From NCBI GenBank assembly GCA_002707205.1, contig PAMH01000013.1, forward strand, positions 1-62,748: 62,748 bases of DNA, written 5' to 3'. A program made the position numbers and the translations under genes. Numbering within the stretch: the first letter of the stretch is position 1; each line of letters starts with the position of its first letter. Below, one piece after another: positions 43,984 to 62,748 of this stretch. The notes under the pieces are model-generated. The model ran no database searches. It was given only the letters and a program-made list of their open reading frames with translations, and was not told the DNA's origin. The stretch comes from Legionellales bacterium. GTDB lineage: Bacteria; Pseudomonadota; Gammaproteobacteria; UBA1113.

Positions 43984-45474
43984 TTAACCTATCTTAGGTA
44001 TACGCGCTACCATACGCAAAGAGGTTGTTAACTCCTCAAACTGTAACCATGGTCTCAACCATGCAACAGCATGATATGAACCAGGCTGTCCTGGTATAGC
44101 TTTCACTTCAATTTTTGCTTCTGCGAGTGGATATTTCGCTTTTAAATCTTGATTTGAATCTGCATTAGCATTTACATAATTATTAACCCAACGATTCAAC
44201 CACTTTTCACAATCAGATGCTTCCATAAATGCACCTATTTTATCTCTTGCCATCACTTTTAAATAATGAGCAAATCTCGCACTGGCTAAAATATAAGGCA
44301 TTCTTGCTGAAATTGCTGCATTTGCTGTTGCCTCCGGAATATCATACTTTAACGATTTTTGTACTGTTTGGCCGCCAAAAAAAACCGAGTAATTTGTATT
44401 TTTATAATGACATAATGGTAGAAAACCAAGCTTGCTTAATTCAGCTTCTCGCCGATCAGTAATTGCAATTTCACTCGGACATTGCGAATCAATATCGCCC
44501 TCATCAGTGAAAAAAACATGTAAAGGTAAATTTTGTACTTTTCCACCACCTTCTGCACCACGAATAGCTGTGGTCCAACCATATTTGGCAAATGCTTCTG
44601 TTAAACGAACACCGAACACATAGGCTGCATTCATCCAACAATAATCATGATGTGCCAATTGTGTCGTGGGCTTTCCTTCTTTAATTGAGGTTTCTTCAAA
44701 TTGAAACTCTTCAATAGGTAAAGTTGCTTCACCATAAGGAAGTCTTGCTAATACCCGAGGCATAGTCAAAGTAATAAAACGTGAGTCTTCTGAATCTCTA
44801 AAGCTTTTCCATTTAGCATATTCCACGCTATCAAAAATTTTCTCAAGATCTCTTGGATTTGCTAACTCCGCCCAAGTATCAAAACCCATTAATTTACAAC
44901 TTGCAGCACTTATAAATGGACAAAATGCAGCCGCAGAAACCTCAGAGATTTTACGTAACATTTCGACATCTTCAGGATGATTATCAAAATCATAATCACC
45001 AATCATTGCACCATATGGTTCACCACCTGGCATACCAAACTCGTTTTCATAAATTTTTTTAAACATTTGACTTTGGTCAAACTCAACAGCCTTATCTAAA
45101 TCTTTAAATAATTCTCGCTTCTTGACATTTAGCATCTTAATTTTTAAAGATGCACCTGTTTCTGAATTAGAAACAAGATATTGCAAGCCGCGCCAAGTGC
45201 CTTCAATTTTTTTAAAATCTTCTGTATGTATAATTTTTGCTAACTGATTAGAAATAGCTTGATCAAGCTTATTGATTGCGGTATTAATGGTAGCTACTAA
45301 ACTTTTATTCCATATTATAGTGCCATTTAAAGTATTCGCTGTTAATGCACGTAACAGATCCTCCGCCTGACATCTCTCTGTTTGTTTTGTTGCTAAAATA
45401 GCTTGCTCCAATATACTCTCTGAAGCTTCAATACTATTATTCACATCTATTACTGACTGCTGAATATCAGACAT
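43984..45474 (-). CDS. tssC: T6SS contractile sheath large subunit TssC (VipB family), copy 1
   Basis: The 496-aa product carries hallmark blocks: [66 protein letters not shown] and the C-terminal [17 protein letters not shown]. It lies directly downstream of tssB. Confidence 0.93.
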
Positions 45475-45475: not shown

Positions 45476-45979
45476 TTACTCTCCCCTGTCTAATTCTAAC
45501 TCTTGCACTAATTTTTGTAACTGTGTCGAATCTTGTAATGTCGCCTCTAAAATTGATTCTAACTTATCTGAACGATCTGACTTTGATAGCAAGTCACGAA
45601 GTTTATCTCTTGTGTCTTTTAGTTCCTTTAAGGCAGGAACTTGCCCTACAATTTTAGCGGGTTCAAAATCTTCCATGGCACAAAATTTAAGTTGTATAGA
45701 CATCTCTGAGCCATCATCTTGTAACGTATTTTCAACACGTAAATTCAGTCCTGCATTTTGCTTTTTCATTACCTCATTAAAGTTATCTCTATCAATTTTA
45801 ATGAATTTTCTTTCCTTCAAGGGTTTTAATACTTCTGTTGGATGCCCTGAAAAATCACCTAGCACACCTACAACAAAAGGTAATTCCTTTTCAACAGTAC
45901 CACCTTCTGTTTCAACCTCATATTTAATATGTACCCTAGGTTTTCTAACCCGTTCTAATTTGTCATTAACACTTGACAT
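45476..45979 (-). CDS. tssB: T6SS contractile sheath small subunit TssB (VipA family)
   Basis: [27 protein letters not shown] and the [11 protein letters not shown] blocks are present. The product is 167 aa. Its stop lies 1 nt from the tssC start, and ATG follows AGGAG. Confidence 0.93.
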
Positions 45980-46067
45980 TTTCTTCTCCTATTGTGATTA
46001 ACAAAATTAAAATACCTTTCAACTTTATTGAGATATGCAGTTATTATGTACTGCGGAAGTTTTAAAT

Positions 46068-47174
46068 TTATTTCATATCTTTTAAGCCTATCAATTTTAA
46101 AAAGTTATTTTTGGCAACATCATCACTGATTAATAATTGCATTAATTCCGGCAACGACATTTGTCCCCAATTAATAATATTATCAATACCATATGAAATG
46201 GGAGAGTGTGGCTCAGTAATACGAAAAAAATTTGCGATTGCAGCTAAATCCTTAAGCGATGATTCTCGACTCATTTTTGAAAGTTTTTGGTGATAAGGTT
46301 GAACTTTGAATTCTACATCCTTTGATTTCTTTTGTGATTCATTTTCTTTAATTACATCAACGTGACTAATTTTTGTATCCACATCCTTTAAGTCATGCAA
46401 AATAAAATTAAGATGATCATTAAATAATGTTAGTGCATTTTTAATATGTGAGGATGGTGGTGCGTTATGATGATAACGCGCAACCAAATAGTCTTGCAGC
46501 TGCTCAAACTTTTCTAAAACAAGCTTAAGCTGCTTTTGTAAAAGATCATAAAAGTTTTTGGGCGTTTCTTTAGCTGCTTTTTTTATAACATTTATATCAA
46601 TAAAACCTGCTTCCAACTTTTGATTAATAATTTTCTGATCTTGTATTTTATTAATCGCTATTGCCTGTTGATACTGCCACATGGCATACGAACCGAGATT
46701 TTCGCTGTTTACGATTAATTGATTTTGAATTGGCTGAATCAGACTACCTTGATTATCAATCCCATTTAAACCAATTAATGCTGCAAATCGCGATTCAAGT
46801 CCATCCTCATCAGGTAATGGATAAATATCATCAGGAAAATTTTTTAGTAAAAAATAAATAAGCTCAAACCCTTTTGCTAAACCATAAAAGCCATCTTGAC
46901 GAAGCCAAGCCTCTGTTAACCAACAAGCAATTTCTAAGTCTTTTGTTTGCTCCTTAATTAAGTAGATTCCTTTAGTTGATACCATTTTCCAATAACTCAT
47001 CGAATCAGCATCAGTTTCGCCACTAAGTTGTTTTCTTTCAATTGTTCTTGCCTTATTGCGAGCATCTTTAACCTCGTAATAATCATCACGATAATAATCA
47101 TTTTTTCTTAAATCAATACCACAAGGGTCTTCTTGACTAATATTTTTCAATAAACTTTTTAGGTTAATTGACAT
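46068..47174 (-). CDS. tssA: T6SS protein TssA (ImpA N-terminal domain, short form)
   Basis: It has an ImpA_N-type N-terminus (ISQEDPCGIDLRKNDYYRDDYYEV...AR). The product is 368 aa. It overlaps the tssM stop by 11 nt and lies upstream of tssB. Confidence 0.8.
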   Translation of the reverse strand: MSINLKSLLKNISQEDPCGIDLRKNDYYRDDYYEVKDARNKARTIERKQLSGETDADSMSYWKMVSTKGIYLIKEQTKDLEIACWLTEAWLRQDGFYGLAKGFELIYFLLKNFPDDIYPLPDEDGLESRFAALIGLNGIDNQGSLIQPIQNQLIVNSENLGSYAMWQYQQAIAINKIQDQKIINQKLEAGFIDINVIKKAAKETPKNFYDLLQKQLKLVLEKFEQLQDYLVARYHHNAPPSSHIKNALTLFNDHLNFILHDLKDVDTKISHVDVIKENESQKKSKDVEFKVQPYHQKLSKMSRESSLKDLAAIANFFRITEPHSPISYGIDNIINWGQMSLPELMQLLISDDVAKNNFLKLIGLKDMK

Positions 47175-50100
47175 GTTTTTCCCTTTTTTTGATAGTTATG
47201 TTGTTAGGTAATAAAAATTTTTTAAACAAAGATAAATTTAAAATTGATAGCTTAGCGATATTAGAGATTTGATAACTACTAGTAACTCCATTTAAATTAA
47301 AGTCATAATAATATAAACCTTGATATTTTGTTTTATTCAAAGTACCTTGAGAAAAAAACTGATAAATAGACCACGGGCCAGAAAATTTCATATGGTAATT
47401 GTCACCAGAAAAAGTATTTAACGTTAAGCTCACAGCATTAGCATTTTCAGGGAGTGGCCAACTAATATTTTTTGTTTGTTGTGGTCCATGACGATAATTT
47501 AAATTGGTCTCACCAATATGCAGGATAGAGTTTGTTGCATCACTTGATAATGTTATAGGTTTAATAGAAAATTCTACCGATAATTGATTACTACCAGATA
47601 AAAAATAGTTTGTATGAATTTTTTCCCATTGCATAAATTGATCAATGGATTCACGTGTTAAATCAATAGTATGACCATCAACATGATAGGGTCGCCAAGG
47701 ATTAGATTTCACATCTATGAATGGCTTAATATACTGACTATAATATTTTGACATTAATCCATCTTCCCCAAAAAACGCTATAAAGTCTTTCAAAGGCACT
47801 TGATTTATGCTATTTGTATCAAATGGATAACTACTTTTTAAGTTTTCCACATAGTAAAGCATAACATCATGCTGCCACACCTCATTCATTTTTTGATGCG
47901 CATTATCCAAAATAACAAACCACACTTGGTCTGCTATTTCTGTTAACCATTGATTAATTGGTGTGGGCGTATTATTAGCCAATTGATATAATAACTGGAG
48001 AGGCGTTTTTTTACCTTGTATCATTTCCAAAATAGCATTAAAACTTGCTTGTTGAGGATCTTTTGATTTCTCTATGGTTAATAGATAATCACGTAATTTA
48101 GAGAATACATTGACTGTTTCCTTTAATGTGTATTTTGTAGATATATTTTCATAATAATTATTGATTAATTTAAATGCTTTTGATAACTGATGGTTATCAT
48201 GATCAATATTGTCAGAGTTACTATATATGACTAATAATAAATTATTCATTGGCGATGAACTGTCCATAAGCATATTTAATTTCTTTATACTTTGACTTAA
48301 TGATATAAAAGGTTTAATAGATATATTAGTTAATGCATTATTCCAAGCTGCAATATAATTATGGTTATATTTTTTTATTATTATTGCTTTAATTTGATGG
48401 TCTGTTTGTACGATATTATTCGGTAAACCAATAATCTGATTGTCATGTACTACTTCTTTTGTAATATCTTGATTAAACTTAGAAAAAATATTTTCAAATC
48501 CTTGCTTAGTATATAAACTTGGAATTACGATACTTTTCACATCAAATGAAAATATTTTTTTAAAATTTTCACCAGCCATAGCACTTAAATCTAAATTAGG
48601 ATAGTTACTTACATTGCTTTTTATTTTTAACAATCCATAAGCTCTATCTGCTGGCATAATTTGCTCTAATTGTTTTCTTGCTTTATTTATAAGCAATTGA
48701 TCAATAGGAAGTTTTGGAATGCGATTCTGTAGTGATATATCTAAATATTTTTCAAGTGATTTTAATAAATTAATTTGATCAATATATTCATTTTTCCACT
48801 GAAATAACATCGGTGCTTTAAGCATGTTTTTTTCCACATGATTATTATCACTGAATACCAGATAGGCTTTTAAATTTGCATAAAGTAAATTTGCATCGAC
48901 AATATTTTGACTTAAATCATTTTTCAACTGTGATGCTATTCTTGGTAAAAATAAGCTTCTTAACGCACGATTTAACGTTTCTTCTAATTTTTTCTCTAAA
49001 TAATAATTTGTAAAAATCATTGTTGTGTAAATAAAATTATTATCTTTAGATAAACGATAGGCTTGATATAACTGATTAATTACTGGAACAATTTTAATTA
49101 ACGCAGCATTATCTGGCGCTAGCTGCGTGTAATCATGCTGATAATAATTAATCCGATTTTCAATTAAATGTATTTTAATTTGTAATATTTGATACCCTTG
49201 ATGCATTGAATAAATTAACAATCCTAAAATTACTGGTTGAGCATAGCGTAACACTTGATATTTTCGCCGTTTATTATTGTTATATTTTTTATTTTCACCA
49301 ACCCATTCAGCTTCTGGATATATAACATCTAAAAAAATATTCTTTACAAAATAATTTTCACTTATTTTTTTTTGAGATTTAAAAATTGGTAATACAAGCT
49401 GATACTTTTTTGCTATCGCTTGAGAAAGATAATCATATGGATTACCTGACTCTTGATTACAGCTGGTAAAGTATAGTCCTCTAAACTGCAACGTATCTAG
49501 CTGATTAATACTTAAAAATAATTCAGATATAAAATTAATAATGGGCTGCTTAATTAACTGTATCTGTTGAGGAAACTGATAAATTAATGCTCTATCCCTA
49601 GCAGTTTCAACTTTATTCAAAGTCCATAAGACACGATTTTTTAAAATATTAGTCAGCTGTGTATATTCTTTATTACAATATCTTATAACATATGATTGAT
49701 CATGACATCGTGGTAAAGGTAAAGTAAATCCCCATACTTGCTGTAAATCTTCTTTATTAAGCTCGCTGAAAAATTCACAAAACCCTGATAATAAATCGCA
49801 TTTATTAAAAATAAGATACAAAGGAACATATGCCCCTGATTGTTTATGCACTATTTTTACATATTGACTAACATTTTGAATAAATTCATTCCGTTCCTTA
49901 TTACTCATCGACATTAAATCATGTATAGTTAGTGTCAAAATCACACCACTAAATATTTTATTTTTGTGCACTTTCTTTAATGATTTTATTAAATTTTCAT
50001 ACAAAGATAATTTTTCACTCTTAATATTGTACTTAGGTTTAATAAAAACTGCTTGTTGTGAAAAATACCATTTATAATCTGAAAAGTTTTTATTCAAATA

Positions 50101-50391
50101 TACAGCTTCATCACAACAACTTTGCGCATTAATATAATTTAATTTTATATTGTTTAAAAAACTTTGTTTTCCTGAATTTTTTGAACCGATTATTAAGTAC
50201 CATGGTAGCTTATAAAAATTTAGCTGGAGATAGTCTTGTTTAATTTTATGATGAACCAGCTTTGTATTTATTGATAATTTCTGGAAAACATCATATGCCA
50301 TTGCCTTTATTTTTGCAAAACCAACAGTTAATTTAATGCCTGTATTTTTAAAAAATATTACTGCTTTTTTTATAAAATCCATTATCATCAC
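47164..50391 (-). CDS. tssM: T6SS membrane complex protein TssM (IcmF family), atypical N-terminus
   Basis: The 1075-aa product has the LPWYLIIGSKNSGKQSFL P-loop region at residue ~62 and an IcmF-like periplasmic region. It has an ATGA overlap with tssL. No hydrophobic hairpin precedes the P-loop. Confidence 0.88.
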   Translation of the reverse strand: MMIMDFIKKAVIFFKNTGIKLTVGFAKIKAMAYDVFQKLSINTKLVHHKIKQDYLQLNFYKLPWYLIIGSKNSGKQSFLNNIKLNYINAQSCCDEAVYLNKNFSDYKWYFSQQAVFIKPKYNIKSEKLSLYENLIKSLKKVHKNKIFSGVILTLTIHDLMSMSNKERNEFIQNVSQYVKIVHKQSGAYVPLYLIFNKCDLLSGFCEFFSELNKEDLQQVWGFTLPLPRCHDQSYVIRYCNKEYTQLTNILKNRVLWTLNKVETARDRALIYQFPQQIQLIKQPIINFISELFLSINQLDTLQFRGLYFTSCNQESGNPYDYLSQAIAKKYQLVLPIFKSQKKISENYFVKNIFLDVIYPEAEWVGENKKYNNNKRRKYQVLRYAQPVILGLLIYSMHQGYQILQIKIHLIENRINYYQHDYTQLAPDNAALIKIVPVINQLYQAYRLSKDNNFIYTTMIFTNYYLEKKLEETLNRALRSLFLPRIASQLKNDLSQNIVDANLLYANLKAYLVFSDNNHVEKNMLKAPMLFQWKNEYIDQINLLKSLEKYLDISLQNRIPKLPIDQLLINKARKQLEQIMPADRAYGLLKIKSNVSNYPNLDLSAMAGENFKKIFSFDVKSIVIPSLYTKQGFENIFSKFNQDITKEVVHDNQIIGLPNNIVQTDHQIKAIIIKKYNHNYIAAWNNALTNISIKPFISLSQSIKKLNMLMDSSSPMNNLLLVIYSNSDNIDHDNHQLSKAFKLINNYYENISTKYTLKETVNVFSKLRDYLLTIEKSKDPQQASFNAILEMIQGKKTPLQLLYQLANNTPTPINQWLTEIADQVWFVILDNAHQKMNEVWQHDVMLYYVENLKSSYPFDTNSINQVPLKDFIAFFGEDGLMSKYYSQYIKPFIDVKSNPWRPYHVDGHTIDLTRESIDQFMQWEKIHTNYFLSGSNQLSVEFSIKPITLSSDATNSILHIGETNLNYRHGPQQTKNISWPLPENANAVSLTLNTFSGDNYHMKFSGPWSIYQFFSQGTLNKTKYQGLYYYDFNLNGVTSSYQISNIAKLSILNLSLFKKFLLPNNITIKKREKHVN

Positions 50392-51224
50392 TTATATCGT
50401 TCTTGCTTATTACTATTAACTAATTTATTGAAATCAGAAACTTGTAGATAAATAGTTACAGGTGAAACATTTGCAATTGTTGATAATGCATTTAATATTG
50501 GTTGTGTACTATTTATTGCACGGAAATTATAGTATCCTAGGCTAATTAAAAATAAAGTTAGCGTAATTATTGTTATCTTTTTTAACTTAATTTTATGACA
50601 TGTTTCTTTATGTGGTTTATGAAATACTTTCCATTGTGGAGATAATTTCTGTGACTGGCAATTACGTACTTGTTTAATGTGATAAAAAATTCTATGCCTT
50701 ATTTCATTTCTAATCATTTTATTTTCATGACCATAAAGTTTTCCCTCAAAGCCTAGACTCATTAGGCAATATCCAAACTCTATAAATTCAATATGATCTC
50801 GAATGTTTTTTAACATATTTTCTAAAATAATATAAAAGCGCTCTCCGCCCCATGTTTCTTTTTGAAAATAACTTAATAATCCTTCTTGTGTCCATATGCT
50901 TTTCTTACCCCATGCAGTACTCAATACAACTTCATCTATTGCTGTACACAAACAATATCTTGCTGCAATGATCATTATTTCAGGATAATCAACAAGAACT
51001 AATTTTTTTTCAAAATTTTTTATTTCATCAATCATTAATGTTTGTAATTGAATGATATTTTTCTGCTCTATAGCATATCTTATCTGTATAATTAGGATAA
51101 ATATTATATCTGCAGCTTCTATGAGTTTATTTTTAACTTTAGTACTATTAGATATATCACGCTTCGCATTCTCCATATACGTAGATACAACTTTTTGATT
51201 ATTGACTAAAGCTTTATTATTCAT
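50388..51224 (-). CDS. tssL: T6SS membrane complex protein TssL (DotU family)
   Basis: DotU blocks are present (AARYCLCTAIDEVVL, QKETWGGERFYIILE, CLMSLGFEGK). It has a single C-terminal TM (ITIITLTLFLISLGYY) and no OmpA/PG-binding extension. Confidence 0.87.
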   Translation of the reverse strand: MNNKALVNNQKVVSTYMENAKRDISNSTKVKNKLIEAADIIFILIIQIRYAIEQKNIIQLQTLMIDEIKNFEKKLVLVDYPEIMIIAARYCLCTAIDEVVLSTAWGKKSIWTQEGLLSYFQKETWGGERFYIILENMLKNIRDHIEFIEFGYCLMSLGFEGKLYGHENKMIRNEIRHRIFYHIKQVRNCQSQKLSPQWKVFHKPHKETCHKIKLKKITIITLTLFLISLGYYNFRAINSTQPILNALSTIANVSPVTIYLQVSDFNKLVNSNKQERYK

Positions 51225-52560
51225 ATGTATTTCCTTTAATCGCCCAAATTGATAATTTTAATCCTGGAATCTTTTTTCCTACATGTACTGCAAGCGCACC
51301 TGTTTTTTCAAGATTTTTCCAATGTGAACTTGCTGTATCAATTAAAAAATATGCATGGTTTGCTTGAAATGGTATTTGCTTTGGTACTAGATTTATAGGA
51401 CTAATATTCGCGCCAGGTAATGCTTTATGTATTAATGTTTCAATATGCGATGTAGATGCAATCTTTAATTGATTTGGTAACGATGCTTTCAGTATATCAA
51501 TTGATATATCTGCATACGCAACCAAGACAAACTGACATTCATTGATAATTTTTTTATCATTTATATGAGCTATCCATGTACCATATGTTTTAGCAATTAA
51601 TTTTATATTGATTGCATTTTGTTCCAGCACCAATGTCAATGAAGTTCTAAGCTCATGCATTAATTCTTTAAACGTTTCATTTAAATTATCATGCCTATAT
51701 TGTGTTTTTTTTATGGGTCTTCTTTTCTTACTGATATAAGTTGAAATCTCAGCCATTAATGAATTCAACACTTGATAAAGATATTCTGGATGAACCACAC
51801 GCTTCTGGCTAATATAATATAATTCTTGTTGATATTTATTCATCATTTGTAATAAAAGAAAATCAACCATTTCTGCTGTTCCAGCATGATTTTCATCTGT
51901 TAAACGGTTAGCAATTAACTCTGCTCTATTTTCCACTAATCCATATATTTCTAAAATATAAGATGATAATCGCTTACTTGTTTGACAGTTTATCCATATT
52001 GTTTCAAAAGCATTATCTAGTAGGATTTTACGATTAATACCCACCTCAATAATTTTTGCTATCGGCAAAATACTATATGCTGACAAGTTTTCATATTCAG
52101 GCATAATTGAACATGCTAATTTAGCCATTTGAATCTCAACTTCATTGTGACTATCTGCAATTGCATCTTCAATTTTTGATTGAAATATTATATTTCTATG
52201 AATCTGTTTTGTTTCATTTGTACCAACTTCAGCTATTTCTTTTTCTCGTAATGGAATTGTTAGATAAATGATTTTATTATGTATATTCTCTGGAATATCC
52301 AGCGGAACGGGTAATTGATCTACTGTAGATAAATCAAAATATGTACCATCAGGAAATATTCCACGCGCATATTTTAATGCAATTTTTCCTATTGATAATA
52401 AATTTTCATCTATCGCAAAAGATTGTAATCCCCAGAAGTTTTCATTATTTACCGTTATTTTTTGTTGTATTATATTCTCAAAATACCTTTCTTGTTGTTG
52501 GAAATGTTGTGGATGAAGAAACATACCTTCATACCAAACAATACGATTGCTAAATAACAT
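51217..52560 (-). CDS. tssK: T6SS baseplate protein TssK
   Basis: It has the canonical N-terminus RIVWYEGMFLHPQHFQQQERYFE. The product is 447 aa and the gene overlaps the tssL start by 8 nt. Confidence 0.9.
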   Translation of the reverse strand: MLFSNRIVWYEGMFLHPQHFQQQERYFENIIQQKITVNNENFWGLQSFAIDENLLSIGKIALKYARGIFPDGTYFDLSTVDQLPVPLDIPENIHNKIIYLTIPLREKEIAEVGTNETKQIHRNIIFQSKIEDAIADSHNEVEIQMAKLACSIMPEYENLSAYSILPIAKIIEVGINRKILLDNAFETIWINCQTSKRLSSYILEIYGLVENRAELIANRLTDENHAGTAEMVDFLLLQMMNKYQQELYYISQKRVVHPEYLYQVLNSLMAEISTYISKKRRPIKKTQYRHDNLNETFKELMHELRTSLTLVLEQNAINIKLIAKTYGTWIAHINDKKIINECQFVLVAYADISIDILKASLPNQLKIASTSHIETLIHKALPGANISPINLVPKQIPFQANHAYFLIDTASSHWKNLEKTGALAVHVGKKIPGLKLSIWAIKGNTYE

Positions 52561-52570
52561 AACTTACCCT

Positions 52571-53056
52571 TTAATTTGTCTTAACACTCAGGGTGTGAGA
52601 TTCTAATAATATTTTTAAATTGATATTTTTATTTGCTGTTGTGTCACATTTAATGAGGTGACGCCAATTGCCTATCCTTTGGTTTTGATACCCTGCAATA
52701 ATGCCTATATAATGTGTATCCTCTGATATTGCTTCAGATATGTGCATTGTGGTTTTGGGTCTGATTTCTATGATATTTTTATCAATTAAATCATCACCCA
52801 ATACAGCAGAGCTATTATTTTCTAATGCAATATAACTTGCCTGATTAAATTTATCTGGTTTGCTTAATTGATAAATTGTTAGTGCGACGGGTGATGCTTG
52901 TCCATTAATATCGGGATTTAAATAGGTTACTGATTGTACATCCATTTCAGCCGTAGGTATGTTAGCGCTAAACCATGCACATCCACTTAAAGATGAAACA
53001 ACGGTAATACTTATTATTAAAAGTAAACTTATCTTTTTCATTTTTTCTCTTTTCAT
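52571..53056 (-). CDS. tssJ: T6SS outer-membrane lipoprotein TssJ
   Basis: It has a lipobox (SSLSGC) and family blocks LNPDINGQASPVALTIYQL and YIGIIAGYQN....WR. An alternative start exists at 53041. Confidence 0.82.
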   Translation of the reverse strand: MKREKMKKISLLLIISITVVSSLSGCAWFSANIPTAEMDVQSVTYLNPDINGQASPVALTIYQLSKPDKFNQASYIALENNSSAVLGDDLIDKNIIEIRPKTTMHISEAISEDTHYIGIIAGYQNQRIGNWRHLIKCDTTANKNINLKILLESHTLSVKTN

Positions 53057-53136
53057 CTTAGTGTTTTATCTCTATCCAATCATGTGTTCATACATCAATA
53101 GTATTAATATTTTTTATATGCTAATTAGAAGTGAAT

Positions 53137-54030
53137 TTAAGTAATTTTCACTTCTAAGTTATTAGCACTGTTAATAATTAATTCATCCAAAATATCTATT
53201 GGTGCTTGATCTTGAAAATTTGCGGTTCTACCATCAGCACCCTGAATTAACATTGACTCAGTTAAAGCTGACAGACCTAAATCATGCAATATATTTCCTT
53301 TGTTATGTAATAACTTTCTATTTGAGCCACTTTTATTAATAGTAGATACTGTAGATGCTGGCATTTCTAAATCATGGACTACGATAAGTCCTTGATCTAT
53401 CAAAGATTTACTTTTTGTAAAATGTGAATGTATGGTATTCGTCTGTTGCTGAAATACGGTATGTTTTTCAATTGTTGATTTATTTTCTGCACCATACAAA
53501 AAACTTAAATCTTCAAATTTTGATATTTCTTCTTTATCAGACCATAAATGTTTTTTTAAATTTGTTATTACATTGTTTTCTTTACAATGACTAATTGGTA
53601 TGGGCTTTATATTCCAATCATTATCCGCGTCTAATATACTATCTTCACTTGAATGCTCTATTGTATGAGCAATATATTCTTTTTCTAAATTGACTTGATA
53701 AAATTGTTCACCAACTTCAATAATATCATTTTGTGCTAAGCGTATTAACTCACCATCCTGCTCAATAAAAAAATCACCATTATTTTTACTAATGGTTAAA
53801 CACTTAACAAAATATGTTGGTTGTGGTAAGTCAGATTCTTCTTGACTATTTTCTTGGTTCTGTGCCGATACTTTTATTTCCGCAGCCACGGCGTTTGCCG
53901 TACTTGGTTTTATCGCTGTATCAGCCAATATTTTTGCAGGTTTACAATTAATGAGAGATTTAAGCGTCAATTTTAGGTTTTTTTCAATGGTTGCCATATT
54001 GTATTCTTTGTTAATTAAATTTAAACCCAC
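53137..54030 (-). CDS. Hypothetical T6SS-associated protein occupying the fha (tagH) position
   Basis: This is the first gene of the tssJKLM-tssABC block, with a GTG start (alternative ATG at 53997). At most a degenerate FHA-like terminal strand is visible (ELIRLAQNDIIEVGEQFYQV). No GR...S..H...NG FHA core was seen. Confidence 0.5.
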   Translation of the reverse strand: MGLNLINKEYNMATIEKNLKLTLKSLINCKPAKILADTAIKPSTANAVAAEIKVSAQNQENSQEESDLPQPTYFVKCLTISKNNGDFFIEQDGELIRLAQNDIIEVGEQFYQVNLEKEYIAHTIEHSSEDSILDADNDWNIKPIPISHCKENNVITNLKKHLWSDKEEISKFEDLSFLYGAENKSTIEKHTVFQQQTNTIHSHFTKSKSLIDQGLIVVHDLEMPASTVSTINKSGSNRKLLHNKGNILHDLGLSALTESMLIQGADGRTANFQDQAPIDILDELIINSANNLEVKIT

Positions 54031-54487
54031 TTGGTTATATGGGTATTAAACTCATTAAACAATGAAAAGCATAGTTTGTCAAATTTTTTGAGTATTAATT
54101 ACAATTATAGAGTTTATTACTTATAGGTTGTGCATTGTAAATAATCTGACAGTTGTGGCAACAATTTATTTAAGCCGCTTTTAAAAATTTAAAGACATCA
54201 TATATTCTAGGGTTGAATGAAACCATTTAACATGACAAGAAATTGCAATATATCCTTTAATCTCAATTGGTTAAACATAAGTAATACCACTAAAATAAAC
54301 TTGATTTGGTTTATTAGTAACTTGACTAGAATTCAACTACTTAATTACTAACTATAGCGCTGACGATAATCAAATTTCGAATGATAAATTTTAATTTACT
54401 TATCATAGGCTAATCAGTGAAACATAGCGGTACTAAATTTGAAGTGTCCTAAGAACTGAACTTATACAAGCTTTTTGAACAACCAGT

Positions 54488-55135
54488 TTAGTTAATAGAA
54501 TTATTAAATTTAGTGATAACTTTGTTAGTTGTAACATTAACCAAAACATCAAGGCTTGCAAATAGATCCATTGCTCCTTGTGCTTTACTGATGTGGTTAT
54601 CCGCATAGAAGTTATCGGTTAACTCTGACGTATATCGCAAAAATGCATTAAAATGTAATTTCGTCTCCTCTTCGTATTTTTTCAATGCCTCACAAAAAGT
54701 ATTTGAACTATCAGCAATATACGTAGCCAAATATAATGAATTAATTATCCCAAGGATAACGCCTAACCCGGCTGTAGGTGCCATGGCATGAGCTGAGTCA
54801 CCTAATAAAGCAATCAACCCATCTGTTATTTTTTGAGGTGATAACTGACGTAATGTTCTAGATTTTATAATGTTTTCTTTGGGCGTGCTTAAAATAGCTT
54901 GTTTTATTTTTTCTGGCAGACATGGCATATTTTCAAATAATTCATTAAATTTTATGTTCGGTTCATAATCAAAATCTTGGCTATCTAATCTATAGGCAGT
55001 AAAAATATAATAATTATAGCCATTTTCTGTTTTTTGATTTGGATATATTAAAAACCTAGTATTTTTTCCCGAAGATTTGCTGTTTACTTTTTTCAAACAT
55101 CGGTATCCCTCATACAATATTTTGACTTTAATCAA
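54488..55135 (-). pseudogene. Truncated/frameshifted FAD-dependent monooxygenase remnant
   Basis: The C-terminal motif LLGDSAHAMAPTAGLGVILGI (GD..H...P..G.G) is retained. The N-terminal GxGxxG FAD-binding fold is absent and the start is TTG. An out-of-frame upstream peptide (IADSIFGEQAVVKFD, stop at ~55140) suggests a frameshift. Confidence 0.6.
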
Positions 55136-55557
55136 ATTTAACTACGGCTTGTTCACCAAAGATACTATCGGCAATATATTTTACTTACTTTCATAAACTA
55201 GCTAAAAATTCTTATGGCTCTTTAAACTCATAATATGGGTAATTGAGATAGTTGTAAAGCGCATTCAATAATAATTGTACCGCTTTAAATATTATCTACA
55301 AGACTAAACCCTCAACTTTTAAATGCGTAAAATAGACATTTTAATTCCAGCATTTTAAATAGATAGCAATTGCATGCTTAAGATGAATATTATTGGTTTT
55401 TCTATATTTCACCGAGAAAACCTCGATATCATTCAAGCATCAATAAACGTATAACTGTTCATACAGCCATTTAATACCGCTCGTTAAAAAAACATTTGGT
55501 ATCTGGAGCACTGCAACTCATGGAAATTACAACATTCAGCTTTAAAGTCATATTCAA

Positions 55558-58140
55558 CTAGATAGTTACTAATATTTTACAGGCTTGCATATCATAATCA
55601 ACTAGAAGATTTTTAATTCTTTTTCTTTGCAGTATAGACGACATAAATTTTTTGCTTATTGCTGGCAACAATTGTTGTTGTATCGTATTATCAATCAATC
55701 GTGCGCCATACTGATGTGAACAACAAACATTCCCTAAATAAGAAACTAAACCATCTGTAAACTCAGGTGTAAGCTGATATTGTTTATAAATAATTTCAGT
55801 TAATTTTTGTAATTTTAACTGAATAATCCTTTTTAATACTGATGTTGATAAAGTTAAATAAGGAATAGAAATGAAACGACCCAAAAATGCGGGTTTAAAT
55901 ATTTTTAACAACTCGTCTTCAATATATATTGTCAATGCTTGCATATCAATGTCAGCTTGAGTTGCACAAAAATCTTCAATTTGTTCACCACAGGAGTTCG
56001 CTGTCATTAGAATAATAGTATTTGTAAAGTCTATATTTCGTCCTTGTCCATCTTGTAGTATTCCTTTATCAAAAACCTGATAAAAAATATCTTGCATACT
56101 TGGATGTGCTTTATCAATTTCATCGAGTAAAATTAAACTGTAAGGATTTTGTTTCACTGCATCAGTTAAAATACCGCCTTCACCATAACCAATATATCCC
56201 GGCGGCGCACCTGCAAGCATTGAAACTTTATGGGCTTCTTTATACTCAGACATATTAATAGTGATTAGATTTTCTTTTGAACCAAAAATGCTTTCTGCTA
56301 AAACTAAGGCGGTTTCTGTTTTGCCAACACCACTTGGACCTAATAATAAAAACACACCCATTGGTTTAGTCGTGTCAGTTAATTTTAAACTTGATGTTAA
56401 CATATGTTCAGACAAAATTTTAATTGCATATGGTTGGCCAATGATCTTCGTTGACAATGCCTTTTCTAAGCTAAGTAATTGGTTTGCTTGCTCTTTTAAA
56501 ATATGTCCTATGGGAATACCTGTCCAATCAGCAATAACTTCTGATATGATTTTTTCATTAACAAAAGCTTGTAAAAGTGGTCTGTCTTTCTGTATGGTTT
56601 TCAATTGCTTTTCATAATATATAAATGATTTTTTTATTTTATTAAGTGTTAATTTTGATAAATTTTCATTCGCTAAACTACTACGTAAGCTGATTATTTT
56701 TTCGATAATTTTTTTTTCATCATTCCATTGTTTAAATAATACTTTATTTTCTCTTTCAATTTTATAGATTAATTGCTGATTAGTGCCAATGTTTTTATGA
56801 GATATTCCTTGCTTTTTTTCTAAAATTAATCGCTGAAGCGCTTGCTTTAAAAGCTCAATTTTTTTCTCGTTTTTTGTAATATTAATTGGAGTTTCCTTAA
56901 GCCTACTTGCAACTCTGGCGCAAGCAGTATCTAGAACGCTAATACCTTTATCTGGCAGTTTTTTACTTGAAATATATCTCTGTGAAAGTAATACAGCTTT
57001 TTTGATAGCATTATCCAAAATAAATACGCCATGATGTTTTTCAAGGCTCTCAACTAAAGATTGCAACATGCTTATTGCTGTTTCTGTATCCGGCTCATCA
57101 ACCTTAACTAATTGAAATCTTCTTGTTAATGCGGCATCTTTTTCAAAATACTGCTGGTATTCATTCCACGTTGTTGCTGCTATCACACTTAAATCACCAC
57201 GTGCTAGTGCAGGCTTCAATAAATTAGCTGCATCATTTTGTCCGGCTTGTCCACCAGCACCAATTAATGCATGGGCTTCATCAAAAAATAAAATTATGGG
57301 TTTATCTGATATTTTCACTTCAAAAAGTAGTTGTTTTAACCGTTTTTCAAAAACACCTTTAACACTTGCACCAGCTTGTAAAGCACCCATATCCACAGCG
57401 TAAATAATCGTACCTTTCAATATATCTGGAATGTCATTTTTCTCTATTTTTAGTGCAAGTCCTTCAACAATAGCCGTTTTACCAACACCAGGATCTCCTG
57501 TTAAAATAACATTATTTTGTCTTCGCCTAGAGAGGATATCAATGGATTGTCTTATTTCATCTTCACGTCCAATCACAGCATCTATTTTTTTATCTTGCGC
57601 TTGCTGATTCAAATTAATCGCATATTTTTTAAGTGCGTTATTTTTATCTACTCTTCTATTTACCGTATCTATTTCTACATCATGCCCAAGGTTACCAATA
57701 GTCGCTTTTACAGTATTTGATGACACTTTTAAAAACTCATCGGATATACAAGCAGCAATTTGTGATAAAATGGGATCACATATTAAAGCTATCAGAATCA
57801 TTCCAGAATCAATATATTGAGACTGAAACTCTAATGATGCAACTAACCAAGCTGCATTAATTAACTCAATCAATCTTACAGCTATTGCTGGTGTTTGCTC
57901 ATTACCTGAATTCAGACCCGATAAGTTTTTATGTAAATCAGTAGTTATTTTTTCAATATTGCAATTATATATGGTCAATGCTTTTCTTATTATCGCTGAT
58001 TTGTTTTTTAATAAATGCAGCAACCAATGCTCAATTTCAATATTATAATGTGACTTGGCTACACAAAGACTTGCCGCCTCATTTAAAGTTTGGCGAGATA
58101 AATCATCCAATTTTTCAATTAAATTTTTTATGTTTTCCAT
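55558..58140 (-). CDS. clpV: T6SS AAA+ ATPase ClpV (TssH)
   Basis: It has a Clp N-domain start ([20 protein letters not shown]) and two AAA+ modules. Their Walker A motifs are [15 protein letters not shown] and [15 protein letters not shown], and their Walker B motifs are ILFFDEAH and [11 protein letters not shown]. The product is 860 aa. Confidence 0.93.
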
Positions 58141-58179
58141 ATATATTCCTTTATAGATTTATAATTTAATATCATTGTT

Positions 58180-59148
58180 TTAAAAAATAGCGTTTCCAAA
58201 CTCAATACATGTTTGGGTTTTTTCATTGTCAATAATATTTAACCAACTCGTCCAACCCAATTGCATGTTTTTTTCATTTGTTAATTTTTTAATTGGTATT
58301 GTTTTCTTATTTATTTTAAAAATTAATTTGAAACAAAATTGGTAACCCATATAATCAAAAATTACTTTTTTAATTTCTCTCATCATATGTTTACTAGGCA
58401 GCAGATCTAAAAATTTCTCATAATCAATATCACCAATAATTACTGCAAAACCATTCTGAGAGTACCAAGCTTTACTGCCTATAATAGCATTCATGCCTAG
58501 TGTGTTATTATGACTATTAACTGTAATCTTTGTTAAATTATCCTTCTCAATCACAAACCAATGACCTTGTAACTGCATGATTTTAATAGGCAAAGAAAAA
58601 TAATCTGAAAGCAATATGCTTAATCCGTAAGCCGTTCTATTTTGATTTGAAAATAATGCTGCATAGAATAAATGTCTATTTTTTTCTTGTGCATTTTTAT
58701 AAATTAATGAAATGCCTGTTAATGATAGAACTAACTCTATGATTTCAGATTTTTTTTGGTGCTCTAATCCAATATAAAATCGTGCTTTTTCCCATGCCTG
58801 ATAAAATAAACTGATAAGCCTATGATGAAATATATTTAAAAATGCATATAAAGTATAATCTTTTGCATTAATTCTTTCCATGACTAACGAGGATAAATGT
58901 TCAGGTAATATACCAGACTGACCAATCAGCCCCATAAAGGTAACCATGACATCTACTTGATTTTTTTTTATTTTAAGATCAATCACCTCATTTATTGCAT
59001 AAGATAAACTTGGACTAGTTACAAATTTAACGGGTGTAATATCTCGTTGATTTAATAATTTAACTAATTGAAAAAAGTCAAATGACATGATATTTTCTTG
59101 AATAAATTGTAAATCCTCATCTGTTTTCATTATAAACTTTTCTTCCAC
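58180..59148 (-). CDS. tssG: T6SS baseplate protein TssG
   Basis: It has the N-terminal FDFFQLVKLLNQ block. The likely true start is ATG at 59130, which shares one nucleotide with the tssF stop (TAATG coupling). Confidence 0.88.
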   Translation of the reverse strand: MEEKFIMKTDEDLQFIQENIMSFDFFQLVKLLNQRDITPVKFVTSPSLSYAINEVIDLKIKKNQVDVMVTFMGLIGQSGILPEHLSSLVMERINAKDYTLYAFLNIFHHRLISLFYQAWEKARFYIGLEHQKKSEIIELVLSLTGISLIYKNAQEKNRHLFYAALFSNQNRTAYGLSILLSDYFSLPIKIMQLQGHWFVIEKDNLTKITVNSHNNTLGMNAIIGSKAWYSQNGFAVIIGDIDYEKFLDLLPSKHMMREIKKVIFDYMGYQFCFKLIFKINKKTIPIKKLTNEKNMQLGWTSWLNIIDNEKTQTCIEFGNAIF

Positions 59149-60938
59149 TGATTAATCTCGACACCACTTTCATCTATGAAAGTTAAATCAACGAACGTAT
59201 TTAAGTCACAAGTTTTATTCAAATATTCATATAAAACATAACCAAATAATAATTCATTATTTTCTGGAAAATATTTTTTATTTATCGTTATTCTTAACTT
59301 TATCCCATGACTAAAATCTGTCGCCATATATCCATGTATAGGTTTAATAATTTTTTTTAAATCTACTGTTTGAATTCCATGCATAATCAAATCACTATAG
59401 TGCTTGTCATTTAAGCAACTCATTGATAAAACATTTTGTATTTGTTGCTTTGTGTTTTCATTATCTTCTAAAAATTTTTGTCTTAATGCTATTAAGGCAA
59501 TTATATCTATCTGTAATGAGGTGTTATGCTTCTGATAAACAGGTGCTGTAACTTCTGAAAGACTAACTGCTGCTAAATTAGTACTTGTTTCAGCATCTTT
59601 AAATGCAAAAATTTTCCCGGAATCATCCTGTGTCAGTTGTATGTTTTCAAACTTATTAGCGCAAAGCATTTCTGCAACAATAGAGGTTTTATTATTGAGT
59701 GTTGGCTCAATATTTTTAAAGCTGACATTAATGAAACTCTCGTAACCTGAAATATGATATCTTCCAATTTCTTCGCTTGATTTTTTATAATGATACCAAT
59801 GTAGATATTTAGCATTAATATCATCTGCATACTTATATCCAAAAAATGGTCGGCAAACCATATTTTTATACTCAGATATGACATTTACATTATTAATGTG
59901 ATAAATCTCACACTCTGCCATATCAAAATCATTGTCTGGAATAACGGGATAATCATTAATTTTCTGATCTATGACAACCGGCACTGAATTAATTTCGAAT
60001 AAATTAATAACAGGGGAGCATCCTAGTAAAAATGTTTTTTTATTTATTATCGATACTAAATCTGCTTGATAGTTATTAAAGTAAATATTTATGTTTATAG
60101 AGCAACCCATATCATCAGTTACATATTTTGATAAATGCTTCAGTCTAAAATATAAATATTTTTTCGGATATAAAAAAAATTCCATCAGTAAATTTTGTGC
60201 TATTTCTGCATTTTTTTGTGATGGGAATAAATTCTCTTCATCGTCAAAACCCAAAAAAGAAACCAACGATTCAGGATAAATAGTTACTGTCTCATCACTT
60301 TCTGATGTAATCGTAATATAGCTAATGTTTTTAAATAAAATTTGTTGTATTAAATAAGCATTTTCAGTTGAAGTATTAATATAAAAATCCAAATTATTTA
60401 TATTCATTACCTTTATGTTATGCGCCGGATTTATTGCTTGTAATCTAATACTTAATGCCGACTTTGTTTTCTTATTTTTATATGCTTGTTCACACTTAAA
60501 ATTACATCCGAAATATATATCAGTAATTTTAATTGGATATATGGTGAGAGGATAACATGTTCTAAACACACAACTTTTACCATCTGTTGTTTTTGAACTG
60601 AGTTCTGTATTTTTAGGAAGATTATAGGTTTCATCGTGGTTATTAACATTTTTAATTTGAACTGTACTTAATGAGGGAATAATTGATAAATAATTTGGAT
60701 ATAATAAATTTAAGATTGATTGTGATGCGCTTTGCATTTGTCTATCAATTTTATAATTTATTCTTGCAGTTAAAAATGCAAAAGACTCAATTAAAGTACC
60801 AACAAGTGGGTCTTCTGTATTACCTTCGCCCATACATAATCGATTTCCTATTTTTGGATAAGCTTTTGCAAAGGCATCACCTTCATTGCGTAAATAGTTT
60901 AATTCACTTTGGTAATATTTAAGTAAGCTTTTCTTCAT
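59130..60938 (-). CDS. tssF: T6SS baseplate protein TssF
   Basis: It has the canonical N-terminus LLKYYQSELNYLRNEGDAFAKAYPKIGNRL and LIESFAFLTARI. The product is 602 aa. Confidence 0.92.
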   Translation of the reverse strand: MKKSLLKYYQSELNYLRNEGDAFAKAYPKIGNRLCMGEGNTEDPLVGTLIESFAFLTARINYKIDRQMQSASQSILNLLYPNYLSIIPSLSTVQIKNVNNHDETYNLPKNTELSSKTTDGKSCVFRTCYPLTIYPIKITDIYFGCNFKCEQAYKNKKTKSALSIRLQAINPAHNIKVMNINNLDFYINTSTENAYLIQQILFKNISYITITSESDETVTIYPESLVSFLGFDDEENLFPSQKNAEIAQNLLMEFFLYPKKYLYFRLKHLSKYVTDDMGCSININIYFNNYQADLVSIINKKTFLLGCSPVINLFEINSVPVVIDQKINDYPVIPDNDFDMAECEIYHINNVNVISEYKNMVCRPFFGYKYADDINAKYLHWYHYKKSSEEIGRYHISGYESFINVSFKNIEPTLNNKTSIVAEMLCANKFENIQLTQDDSGKIFAFKDAETSTNLAAVSLSEVTAPVYQKHNTSLQIDIIALIALRQKFLEDNENTKQQIQNVLSMSCLNDKHYSDLIMHGIQTVDLKKIIKPIHGYMATDFSHGIKLRITINKKYFPENNELLFGYVLYEYLNKTCDLNTFVDLTFIDESGVEINQWKKSL

Positions 60939-60941
60939 TTT

Positions 60942-61415
60942 TCACCCATCAATTGTAAATTTTTGTCTAAAATAATCCCATGAAGAATCAAATGTTGCTG
61001 CTGTATTTATCATGCTACTATTTAATTTTGCATATATTTTTAATTTTATTGTTCTATTTACTGCAATATCACTTGTTAATATTTCTATATACACATCGCT
61101 TAATCTTTTTTCTGAATGCAAAATATTTTCTTTTATATGCTGACACAGCATGGTTTGAGAAGACTTATGTCCAAAATGGCTATGTGAAAAATCTATCATG
61201 CCATAATTTAAGATCGAATTTTTTAATGCAATTAATTCTTCGGGCAGCTGTATGCCTAAAGATCTTGTATTTAAAATATTTTCTATATTTAGTTTAATAT
61301 CTGCTATCAATTGCCTTTGTTCAATGACATTCATTACTTTACTTTCTCTATGATTATATGGCTGCTCATCTATTAATCTTTGCAAGAGTGGCGTATTAAA
61401 CTTCATGTACTCCAA
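60942..61415 (-). CDS. tssE: T6SS baseplate protein TssE (gp25-like)
   Basis: TPLLQRLIDEQP and the NIENILNTR / ILNYGMIDFS blocks are typical of the GPW/gp25 family. The product is 157 aa and its stop lies 3 nt before the tssF start. Confidence 0.85.
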   Translation of the reverse strand: MEYMKFNTPLLQRLIDEQPYNHRESKVMNVIEQRQLIADIKLNIENILNTRSLGIQLPEELIALKNSILNYGMIDFSHSHFGHKSSQTMLCQHIKENILHSEKRLSDVYIEILTSDIAVNRTIKLKIYAKLNSSMINTAATFDSSWDYFRQKFTIDG

Positions 61416-61427
61416 TATTTATCCTTC

Positions 61428-62748
61428 CTAATTTAATTTCACTTGAGTTATCAATCTAAATTGTAATTCTATTTCATCAATTTGATATTGTGGTTTTAAA
61501 TGCATAATACAATGATATTTCCCTGGCATACTCTTATTTTCTGTCACTTTAACTTTGGCTTCTCTTAAAGGATATTTTGTTCTGACATCCCGCGTTAAGG
61601 TAGTATTTTGTGCACGATATTGATGTAACCAACTATCTAGAAATAATTCACATTCCCTTGCACTGGAAAAGCCACCAATACGATCACGAAGTATCATTTT
61701 AATATAATGTGCAAATCGTGATACACACAATACATAATGTAATAAGGATGAGAGACTTGCGTTTACTGTCCCTGTTTTTGTTGTAAATTTTATTGGTTGT
61801 TGTAATGTTTGCATGTTATAGAAAATTGCTTTTTCTAAGTATCGATTATCTTTTAATACAATAAATCCTGCTTCACTTAATATTTTTTCCTGTGTATCTG
61901 TTATGGCATATTCTGTTGCATTTTTTGCAATTAAGTTATCCTCATCTGTCGAATAATAATCGCGATAAATATCAACGACACCCCCTTTACTATCCTTTTG
62001 ATGAATTCCTCGCATATCACTAAACCATCCTGTCTCTCGATATGATGTTATTACTGTACAAGCAAAAGCATAGCTTGCATTGCCCCAAAGATAATCGTCA
62101 TGATGTTCTGCCGATTCAGTAAAAAAGCGATTATGCGCAGATGAAGTAATTGCCTGATATAGTGGCCGCATTCTAATTCGTGGTAACACTAAACCTAAAT
62201 AATGTGAATCCTCTTCTATACGTATTTGCTTCCACCGTTCATATTCTTTTTGTTGTAATAAATCTTTTACTTGAAAGGGTATCTGTATCTCTGAAAAACT
62301 ATTAATACCAAAAAAATTAGGTGCAATACCTACCACTATCGGACAAAATGCACTGCTAGCAATTTTTGCTAATTCTCTAAGCAAATAAATACAATCTGGA
62401 ATATCTGGTTGTATATTATGATTAAAATAATAGTCGGCAATAATCAAACCAAATGGTTGCCCACCGGGTTGATCAAACTCCTGTTCATAAATTTTTTTAA
62501 ATAATGCCGACTGATCAAAATCAACTGCATGTTCAATATTCTTTGCTAATACTTTGGCACTAATATTTAAAATTTTGATTACAGTTGATGTATCATCTTC
62601 GCGAGCATTTAGTAGTAACAATAAACCACGCCATGAAGCCTCTAGTTTTTGCAATAAGCTATTATGAAGAATAATATTTATTTGTTTGTTAATGACGGCA
62701 TCAATATGCTGGATTAATTTCAATATAATGTTATCTGAACTTATTAAC
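61428..62748 (-). CDS. Second, divergent TssC-family sheath protein (partial, runs off the window edge)
   Basis: TssC blocks are present: LQKLEASWRGLLLLL, FDQSALFKKIYEQEFDQPGGQPFG, SAFCPIVVG, SRFAHYIKMILRDRIG and KYHCIMHLKPQYQIDEI. The ORF-track start at 62723 is a TTG, and the frame stays open (LISSDNII...) up to position 62748. Confidence 0.85.
   Translation of the reverse strand, partial: LISSDNIILKLIQHIDAVINKQINIILHNSLLQKLEASWRGLLLLLNAREDDTSTVIKILNISAKVLAKNIEHAVDFDQSALFKKIYEQEFDQPGGQPFGLIIADYYFNHNIQPDIPDCIYLLRELAKIASSAFCPIVVGIAPNFFGINSFSEIQIPFQVKDLLQQKEYERWKQIRIEEDSHYLGLVLPRIRMRPLYQAITSSAHNRFFTESAEHHDDYLWGNASYAFACTVITSYRETGWFSDMRGIHQKDSKGGVVDIYRDYYSTDEDNLIAKNATEYAITDTQEKILSEAGFIVLKDNRYLEKAIFYNMQTLQQPIKFTTKTGTVNASLSSLLHYVLCVSRFAHYIKMILRDRIGGFSSARECELFLDSWLHQYRAQNTTLTRDVRTKYPLREAKVKVTENKSMPGKYHCIMHLKPQYQIDEIELQFRLITQVKLN

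Follow-up and report, generated by a model that had tools for sequence, protein, structure and literature searches.

Contig PAMH01000013.1 of the Legionellales bacterium assembly GCA_002707205.1, analysed over its positions 1 to 62,748 (62,748 nucleotides, hereafter the window), carries one type VI secretion system (T6SS) gene cluster on the minus strand, from position 43984 to the window edge. The core genes are present in single copy and the order of transcription is impD-tssE-tssF-tssG-clpV-x-x-tssJ-tssK-tssL-tssM-tssA-tssB-tssC. Two genes of the TssC sheath family thus lie at opposite ends of the cluster. The canonical tssC (copy 1) follows tssA and tssB in the normal tssA-tssB-tssC arrangement, while the second gene (copy 2) lies immediately upstream of tssE, the end of copy 2 and the start of tssE being 12 nt apart with no open reading frame (ORF), and so neither tssB nor hcp, in between. 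Both arrangements had been described in an earlier reading made from the DNA letters (the sequence-only reading), and both hold. Copy 2 is best read as an ortholog of ImpD/TssC40, a known but barely studied second "TssC" family, and we are highly confident in this identity and in the anatomy of the gene given below.

The assignment is carried by a neighbor-joining tree of 152 sheath proteins, each labelled according to where its gene lies in the genome, without regard to similarity. A single split, present in 50 of 50 bootstraps, unites 63 of the 64 second-position copies and the window copy 2 to the exclusion of 74 of the 75 tssB-adjacent copies, and this division between ImpD and canonical TssC spans Alphaproteobacteria, Gammaproteobacteria and Planctomycetota. 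Of 64 other loci, 63 have the ImpD-clade copy after tssC and not after tssB. Because one fully supported split separates second-position from tssB-adjacent copies, the TssC/ImpD paralogy is ancient, with the window pair as one instance of it; the sequence-only reading had likewise argued for an old paralogy. With copy 2 as the tblastn query, the best match in both Rhizobium johnstonii pRL12 and a Pseudoalteromonas replicon is the second gene named tssC by PGAP, which sits in the order tssA-tssB-tssC-[second tssC]-tagJ-tssE, and many copy 2 homologs are named ImpD by JGI.

A scan of GTDB representative genomes yielded 80 loci, the best match being 41-42% identical and the window's own lineage not among them; gene order at these loci was assigned by blastp to labelled references. 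The order tssA-tssB-tssC-impD-(tagJ)-tssE-tssF-tssG was found in more than 60 of the 80, among them loci of Colwellia, Kangiella, Psychromonas and Thioalkalispiraceae, of Acetobacteraceae and Rhizobiaceae, and of Planctomycetota. In the tree set, impD is followed by tssE or by tagJ-tssE for 70 of 74 ImpD-clade genes, as it is in the window.

The genes of the window cluster are listed below in the order of transcription.

61428..62748, minus strand: impD/tssC40-type sheath paralog (copy 2), 439 of 447 codons in the window; VipB (PF05943) 4.6e-95, residues 10-316, and VipB_2 (PF18945) 4.1e-37, residues 327-435
60942..61415, minus strand: tssE, gp25-like baseplate/sheath-initiator subunit; Pfam GPW_gp25 1.1e-10
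59130..60938, minus strand: tssF; Pfam T6SS_TssF 1.3e-115
58180..59148, minus strand: tssG; Pfam T6SS_TssG 1e-72
55558..58140, minus strand: clpV/tssH; Pfam AAA_2, AAA_lid_9, AAA and ClpB_D2-small, with Clp_N precomputed on an identical protein
54488..55135, minus strand: 215-aa ORF, C-terminal fragment of a UbiH-like FAD hydroxylase; FAD_binding_3 1.6e-06, profile positions 268-345 of 349 only
53137..54030, minus strand: 297-aa conserved protein with no family assignment; homologs at the same position in loci L002 and L092
52571..53056, minus strand: tssJ; Pfam T6SS-SciN 9.2e-28
51217..52560, minus strand: tssK; PF05936 T6SS_VasE precomputed on the identical gene of contig L086, and blastp to reference TssK
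50388..51224, minus strand: tssL; PF09850 DotU on the identical L086 gene
47164..50391, minus strand: tssM; IcmF-related Pfam domains on the identical L086 gene
46068..47174, minus strand: tssA, short form, 368 aa; TIGR03363 3.6e-70, 237 bits against a cut-off of 160.85
45476..45979, minus strand: tssB, sole copy in the window; Pfam T6SS_VipA 9.7e-57
43984..45474, minus strand: canonical tssC (copy 1), 496 aa, full N-terminus; TIGR03355 676 bits, profile positions 5-473

These genes mostly abut or overlap (gaps of -19 to 88 nt), except around the FAD-hydroxylase fragment, which is flanked by gaps of 422 nt (55136-55557) and 457 nt (54031-54487). The genes ubiB/ubiJ and rpoH lie beyond the tssC end of the cluster. 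Within the window, impD is 16 kb from tssB/tssC and 14 kb from tssA, and phmmer searches with E values up to 1 found one TssB homolog and no Hcp, VgrG, PAAR, TagJ, Fha or TagF.

The two sheath proteins of the window are 34% identical over 435 aa (BLASTP, E 3e-102) and form the most diverged of 65 within-locus pairs (34.4% against a median of 40%). By hand count from the BLASTP alignment, 22 of 35 residues (~63%) are identical in the block AVDFDQS..FKKIYE..PGG..DY.F, in agreement with the estimate of about 60% made by eye in the sequence-only reading. Both copies match Pfam VipB and VipB_2 as well as NCBIfam TIGR03355. Copy 2 scores 419 bits against the latter (cut-off 271.5), matching from profile position 48, and its two Pfam domains are those that define TssC/VipB. 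It lacks the adjacency to tssB that marks a canonical TssC, the sole tssB being 16 kb away. Copy 1 is 67-83% identical to homologs in many phyla.

A single-chain AlphaFold2 model of copy 2 built from a 133-sequence alignment has a pLDDT of 87.8 and a pTM of 0.89; an 11-sequence alignment gave a pLDDT of 43.5 and was not used. Foldseek aligned the model with a TM score of 0.85 to 5n8n_B, 3j9g, 5urw and 5mxn, and with an rmsd of 3.0 Å to extended-state chains. ImpD is accordingly predicted to keep the whole sheath-subunit fold, including the C-terminal gp25-like "handshake" domain. Canonical TssC/VipB proteins (V. cholerae VipB, P. aeruginosa TssC1 and A. vinelandii TssC, 9n4v) have the same two Pfam domains and the same fold. 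In contrast to them, copy 2, which is 30-35% identical to these proteins, lacks the ClpV-N helix and does not lie beside tssB, and ImpD evolves ~2.7 times faster. The sheath initiators Pvc4/Afp4 of extracellular contractile injection systems offer a functional analogy only, as an extra paralog with the sheath fold in one contractile machine. No specific relation of sequence or structure to them was found; the model has a distant fold match to the AFP sheath 6rc8_B (E 6.6e-3, TM 0.38), far below the TssC matches.

Several described systems belong to the same family. The adjacent TssC41/TssC40 pair of Agrobacterium was the one precedent named in the sequence-only reading; the pair is indeed of the same orthologous family, but it is one precedent among many, since more than 60 of the 80 GTDB loci, Rhizobium, Pseudoalteromonas, Vibrio fluvialis and Tateyamaria have such pairs. 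TssC40 (Atu4340, ImpD) and TssC41 (Atu4341, ImpC) of Agrobacterium tumefaciens C58 were placed in the same orthologous clade by way of the Rhizobium johnstonii pRL12 ortholog and the literature. Like the window, Agrobacterium has one canonical TssB/TssC pair and a second paralog upstream of tssE in the same cluster; within-cluster TssC/ImpD identity is ~34-45%, so that the window and Agrobacterium-type pairs show the same order of divergence, and the second TssC of Rhizobium (462 aa) also has a short N-terminus. The order in Agrobacterium and Rhizobium is tssA-tssB-tssC41-tssC40-tagJ-tssE, whereas in the window tssABC is 16 kb off and tagJ is absent. The ImpD proteins of Vibrio T6SS1, Colwellia, Pseudoalteromonas and Thioalkalispiraceae (tssC to PGAP, ImpD to JGI/KEGG) fall in the same clade and are encoded directly before (tagJ-)tssE, with tssBC present. 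They are long (~500-528 aa), with a divergent N-terminal extension LLDxVL...KAL.YW that the window protein lacks. In the literature, impD is recorded in Vibrio fluvialis T6SS1 (PMC5371669), and Tateyamaria has two TssCs of 34-37% identity (PMC9515649).

The Leisingera protein "TssCL" (VipA + VipA + VipB, PMC9515649) was considered as a fusion of ImpD and TssB, which would have spoken for an ImpD-TssB protomer, and set aside as uninformative, its VipB part being 24-28% identical to both clades and its gene lying elsewhere in the cluster. This 1,205-aa protein, annotated as a sheath large subunit, is encoded at L097:736-4353 on Leisingera aquaemixtae plasmid NZ_CP081053.1, adjoining vgrG and far from tssBC. 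TssCL is a third kind of extra sheath-like protein.

The completeness of copy 2 was established from public metagenomes. The exact TssF protein of the window occurs on 19 public metagenome contigs. Six of them were examined, and where they overlap the window their identity to it is 99.98-100%. Every contig that carries the locus matches the window at 99.5-100% identity, and after these the nearest relative drops to 63% protein identity. The sources of the contigs are marine metagenomes, among them Tara Oceans. One of them, L086 (63,585 bp), extends 8,190 bases past the window edge. On L086 and the likewise identical contigs L087, L089 and L090 (99.99-100% identity to the window), the full copy 2 ORF encodes 447 aa. 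Its ATG lies 23 nt beyond the edge (62748), with an in-frame TAA 8 codons upstream, and the 8 residues missing from the window are MKKEIFRQ, followed by the window's own LISSDN.... Within the window the frame is open over 61428-62747, which amounts to 439 codons. Copy 2 is therefore an intact gene of a naturally short 447-aa form, of which only 8 codons are lost to the window edge. The sequence-only reading was right that the TTG at 62723 is not the true start, that the frame stays open to the edge and that the gene is cut there, but the ~55 further N-terminal residues it predicted come down to eight; nor do frameshifts or stops of the kind it had considered make the ORF a pseudogene.

The Tara scaffold L001 has a run of N (388-397) exactly over the impD start region, where the window ends too, and contigs L091 and L088 run out within the 5' part of impD, 66 and 433 nt in. 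Assemblies thus seem to break repeatedly in this A/T-rich stretch of the gene, as a result of which gene callers report a 431-aa protein with a TTG start. Genes like copy 2 should not be named truncated or duplicated tssC in annotation.

Upstream of impD, L086 encodes an OmpA-like β-barrel porin, a comM-like Mg-chelatase, BMFP (PF04380), P-II and a MacAB-TolC-type efflux operon. The genes called in these 8.2 kb beyond the edge (L086:1-8190) include no T6SS Pfam families and no tssB, hcp or vgrG. The complete second T6SS locus that the sequence-only reading thought might abut this one is thus absent from the identical contigs, and its claim of two sheath paralogs at opposite ends of one locus stands. 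As hcp, vgrG and PAAR are also missing from the window, the tube and spike genes should lie elsewhere in the genome. In the relatives L092 and L099, a vgrG in divergent orientation lies directly upstream of impD. A scan for sigma-70 promoters and terminators upstream of impD found promoter-like sites no more common than in shuffled sequence.

The WRG motif is preceded by 46 residues in copy 2 and by about 93 in canonical TssC. This short form is shared: all 36 short homologs together with the window copy 2 make up one monophyletic clade of at least 36 members. The closest homologs are ~426-450 aa long, and intact members with conserved synteny extend down to 42% identity. An upstream stop limits L002/L003 and L008 to at most 44-46 codons before WRG, and the relatives as a group to at most 44-48; in contrast, all 77 TssC-clade ORFs examined allow at least 92 residues there. 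The TssC clade has the N-terminal consensus [SF][IL]L[ED]QAI, and the sequence corresponds to the LLDEII helix of VipB, which is the docking site of ClpV-N (PMC4239648). The sequence-only reading had proposed that this helix be looked for in both copies. Copy 1 has it as SILEQAI, while copy 2 begins after the region, its alignment to a solved TssC (the 493-aa 9n4v chain) starting at about residue 65, and thus lacks the full-length N-terminus with an LLDEII-type helix that characterises canonical TssC. Long-form ImpDs have their own divergent N-terminal extension, which starts with an LLDxVL-like helix. The short subclade has lost the N-terminal segment that carries the ClpV-recognition helix in canonical TssC. 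One member, L049 (9278-12090), encodes a short-form ImpD (~47 residues before WYG/WRG) in the adjacent order tssA-tssB-tssC-impD; because this short ImpD keeps the ancestral order, the N-terminal truncation probably preceded the rearrangement seen in the window.

In that rearrangement impD heads the cluster and tssA-tssB-tssC closes it, with impD still directly upstream of tssE. The same order is found on scaffold_951 from another metagenome, where an ImpD and a TssC that are 48% and 78% identical to those of the window are encoded ~17 kb apart. Further impD-first clusters are those of L002, L008 (a Legionellales metagenome-assembled genome, MAG), L098, L099 and the P0012 contig, and most of the members examined have impD first and tssABC last. 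A MacAB operon lies upstream of the impD-first cluster in the window lineage (L086:1-4060), as it does in L002 (2605-7085; ImpD 63% identical) and L098 (5058-9744; 58%), where impD follows it directly. This shared flank shows that the cluster has kept its place on the chromosome and has been inherited vertically in the group. The impD-first order is a conserved variant of a known arrangement and not an assembly accident, and the rearrangement is younger than the paralog pair because more than 60 loci carry the adjacent order.

Two relatives depart from this pattern. In L099 (10001-17367), a 42%-identical relative, the order is impD-hcp-x-lipase-like-tssE-tssF-tssG, then directly a DUF6931 gene, with no clpV at the usual place; the adjacency of impD and tssE is thus not absolute, and clpV may be missing or lie at another site. 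In L016 (3079-4380), a gammaproteobacterial MAG from Lake Baikal, an orphan short ImpD of 433 aa with both VipB domains has PIN, RsmI and HAD genes as neighbours, and no T6SS gene was found within 3 kb upstream or 9 kb downstream of it.

Evolutionary rates set ImpD apart from the subunits of the sheath lattice. In the 65 loci that have a single TssC and a single ImpD, pairwise identity averages 75% for TssC and 49% for ImpD, and ImpD is the less conserved of the two in 2080 of 2080 locus pairs, while the TssC and ImpD distances are correlated (Spearman 0.84). Mean corrected distances over the 50 loci that have all six proteins are as follows.

ImpD: 0.97
TssE: 1.03
TssF: 0.95
TssA: 1.19
TssC: 0.36
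TssB: 0.45

The ImpD distance is ~2.7 times that of TssC and 2.2 times that of TssB, so that in its rate ImpD resembles baseplate and cap proteins and not lattice subunits. Of 170 columns at least 90% conserved in TssC, 50 are equally conserved in ImpD; the ImpD clade has 76 columns of its own with at least 90% conservation, and 66 of these are retained in the window protein. This pattern indicates purifying selection under different constraints, not decay. Mirror-tree analysis (partial correlations of distance matrices with Mantel permutation) was applied to 50 related loci. It is a crude method in which phylogeny is only partly controlled, and its values serve as a lead: the known TssE-TssF pair was recovered (0.63), and the residual co-variation of ImpD was 0.57 with TssA and 0.46 with TssC (Mantel p 0.001 each), 0.21 with TssB and -0.16 with TssE.

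We propose that ImpD would be a specialised subunit of the sheath fold, not a repeating lattice subunit and probably sub-stoichiometric, which would form or prime a terminal ring of the TssB/TssC sheath. Its most likely site would be the baseplate (TssE) end, as for the sheath initiator Pvc4 of Photorhabdus PVC particles, and it would act there together with TssC and the short-form TssA. A short ImpD without the N-terminal helix would presumably not itself be a direct target of ClpV-N. That ImpD might be a terminal, non-lattice sheath-like subunit is a reading to which we give belief and doubt in about equal measure; its placement at the baseplate end specifically is tentative and rather doubtful. 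The baseplate end is favoured because impD stays directly upstream of tssE even when tssBC has moved away. In PVC particles, Pvc4 is a dedicated sheath paralog that forms the first ring and makes a β-strand handshake with a gp25-like adaptor (PMC12546770). Agrobacterium needs TssC40 to secrete Hcp, and TssC41 does not stand in for it, whereas the stability of TssB depends on TssC41 and not on TssC40 (PMC3702570). These genetic results, the rates, an N-terminus that varies or is missing, and the presence of one tssB speak against an alternative sheath as well as against a regular heteromeric lattice.

Several points weigh against this proposal. The lack of residual co-variation between ImpD and TssE ill fits a tight interface and could point to the TssA-capped distal end. 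The solved structures of T6SS baseplates and sheaths come, to our knowledge, from systems without ImpD, in which no such ring is needed. That impD and tssE are neighbours could be due to chance in the history of the operon, given the orphan gene of L016 and the hcp and two further genes between impD and tssE in L099. The fast rate could reflect relaxed constraint on a subunit that is dispensable in some lineages.

Two other placements were weighed. One is a heteromeric sheath, an option already raised in the sequence-only reading, in which ImpD would be one of the regular lattice subunits, co-polymerising with TssB and TssC over the full length of the sheath. The retention in ImpD of the full sheath fold and of the C-terminal handshake domain is in keeping with it, as are the co-variation of ImpD with TssC across loci, the essential role of TssC40 in Agrobacterium and the trunk of PVC, which alternates the two paralogs Pvc2 and Pvc3 (PMC12546770). 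However, lattice partners from the same clusters evolve far more slowly than ImpD, few of the columns conserved in TssC are equally conserved in ImpD, an N-terminus that is long or absent according to lineage is hard to fit into a fixed helical lattice, and in Agrobacterium TssB needs TssC41 for its stability and not TssC40. We regard such a sheath as unlikely, the fast evolution of ImpD counting against this part of the sequence-only reading.

The other placement is the distal end, where ImpD would be a cap, terminator or TssA adaptor at the growing, TssA-capped tip and not at the baseplate. TssA shows the strongest residual co-variation with ImpD and TssE shows none, tssA is close by in all the ImpD clusters examined that have the common order tssA-tssB-tssC-impD, and the window TssA is of the short form, without a TagA-type distal anchor (PMC7896307). 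Yet after the rearrangement synteny was kept with tssE and not with tssA, and short TssA also acts early at the baseplate (PMC7896307), so that co-variation with TssA fits either end. A distal function seems improbable to us, but the co-variation of ImpD with TssA and TssC, and its absence with TssE, make the distal end a serious alternative. Since the baseplate is where short-form TssA first acts (PMC7896307), the baseplate and distal-end readings are compatible.

Two alternative sheaths, or a fusion of two ancestral T6SS loci, had been suggested by the VipB-family genes at opposite ends of the locus. This explanation is largely refuted and very improbable: tssB and the other core genes are single, no T6SS gene lies in the 8.2 kb beyond the window, the ImpD and TssC distances co-vary as they would if both had been inherited together in one machine, the pair of paralogs is older than the rearrangement (more than 60 loci have the adjacent order), relatives have the same split order, and in Agrobacterium TssC40 and TssC41 are both required and non-redundant. 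A decaying or non-functional relic of a duplicated tssC, which the extreme divergence of the pair, the N-terminal truncation and the lower TIGR03355 score might suggest, is highly improbable in view of an intact 447-aa ORF that is identical in several independent metagenome assemblies, the conserved ImpD-clade columns it keeps, a short subclade of at least 36 intact members with conserved synteny, and a confidently modelled fold.

Some neighbouring features of the window deserve mention. The 215-aa FAD-hydroxylase fragment, flanked by clpV and the gene for the 297-aa protein, lies where relatives have a DUF6931 gene, of which tblastn found no homolog in the window; the 215-aa ORF is probably a gene remnant, an insertion or a replacement. 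The 297-aa protein (~30 kDa) has homologs in L002 (28% identity, E 4e-13) and L092 (23%, E 3e-07) and no Pfam or NCBIfam match. A class of ~30-kDa partners of short-form TssA (TssA-S) has been described by Bernal et al. 2021 (PMC7896307), and in this cluster, which has a short-form TssA and no TagJ or TagB, the 297-aa protein is a candidate for such a partner. The GC content is 33.8% for the window, 29.9% for the T6SS part (43984-62748) and 35.4% for the rest (1-43983); the low value of the T6SS region may reflect horizontal origin or a drift of the cluster toward AT. A 464-aa eukaryotic-like Ser/Thr kinase encoded at 21775-23169 on the minus strand has a weak match to the NCBIfam model of LegK1, a Legionella Dot/Icm effector kinase (E 1.1e-13, far below the cut-off). 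Together with a RadA whose best named match, at 72% identity, belongs to a Legionellales MAG, this kinase hints at what may be a host-associated lifestyle. From these data the organism would be an uncultured marine gammaproteobacterium that may, at low confidence, stand close to Legionellales.

Two diverged TssCs in one cluster were already known from Agrobacterium TssC40/41, Vibrio impD and Tateyamaria, and no new system is described here. What is added is context for a neglected protein, the rearranged and N-terminally short subclade serving as a natural experiment on the ties of ImpD. The ancient, clean clade, the baseplate-like rate, the adjacency to tssE after rearrangement and the truncated subclade sharpen the testable hypothesis of a terminal, non-lattice sheath subunit. 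ImpD is not mentioned in a 2026 review of T6SS accessory factors, though it is essential in Agrobacterium. It is a reasonable possibility, if on balance a doubtful one, that ImpD paralogs are a structural component (terminal ring, initiator or cap) of a large T6SS subtype with short-form TssA, and that this component would have been overlooked because pipelines label these paralogs "tssC". If so, the window subclade would show that the component works without the N-terminal segment that faces ClpV or TagJ, and that ImpD is tied genetically to the baseplate module and not to tssBC.

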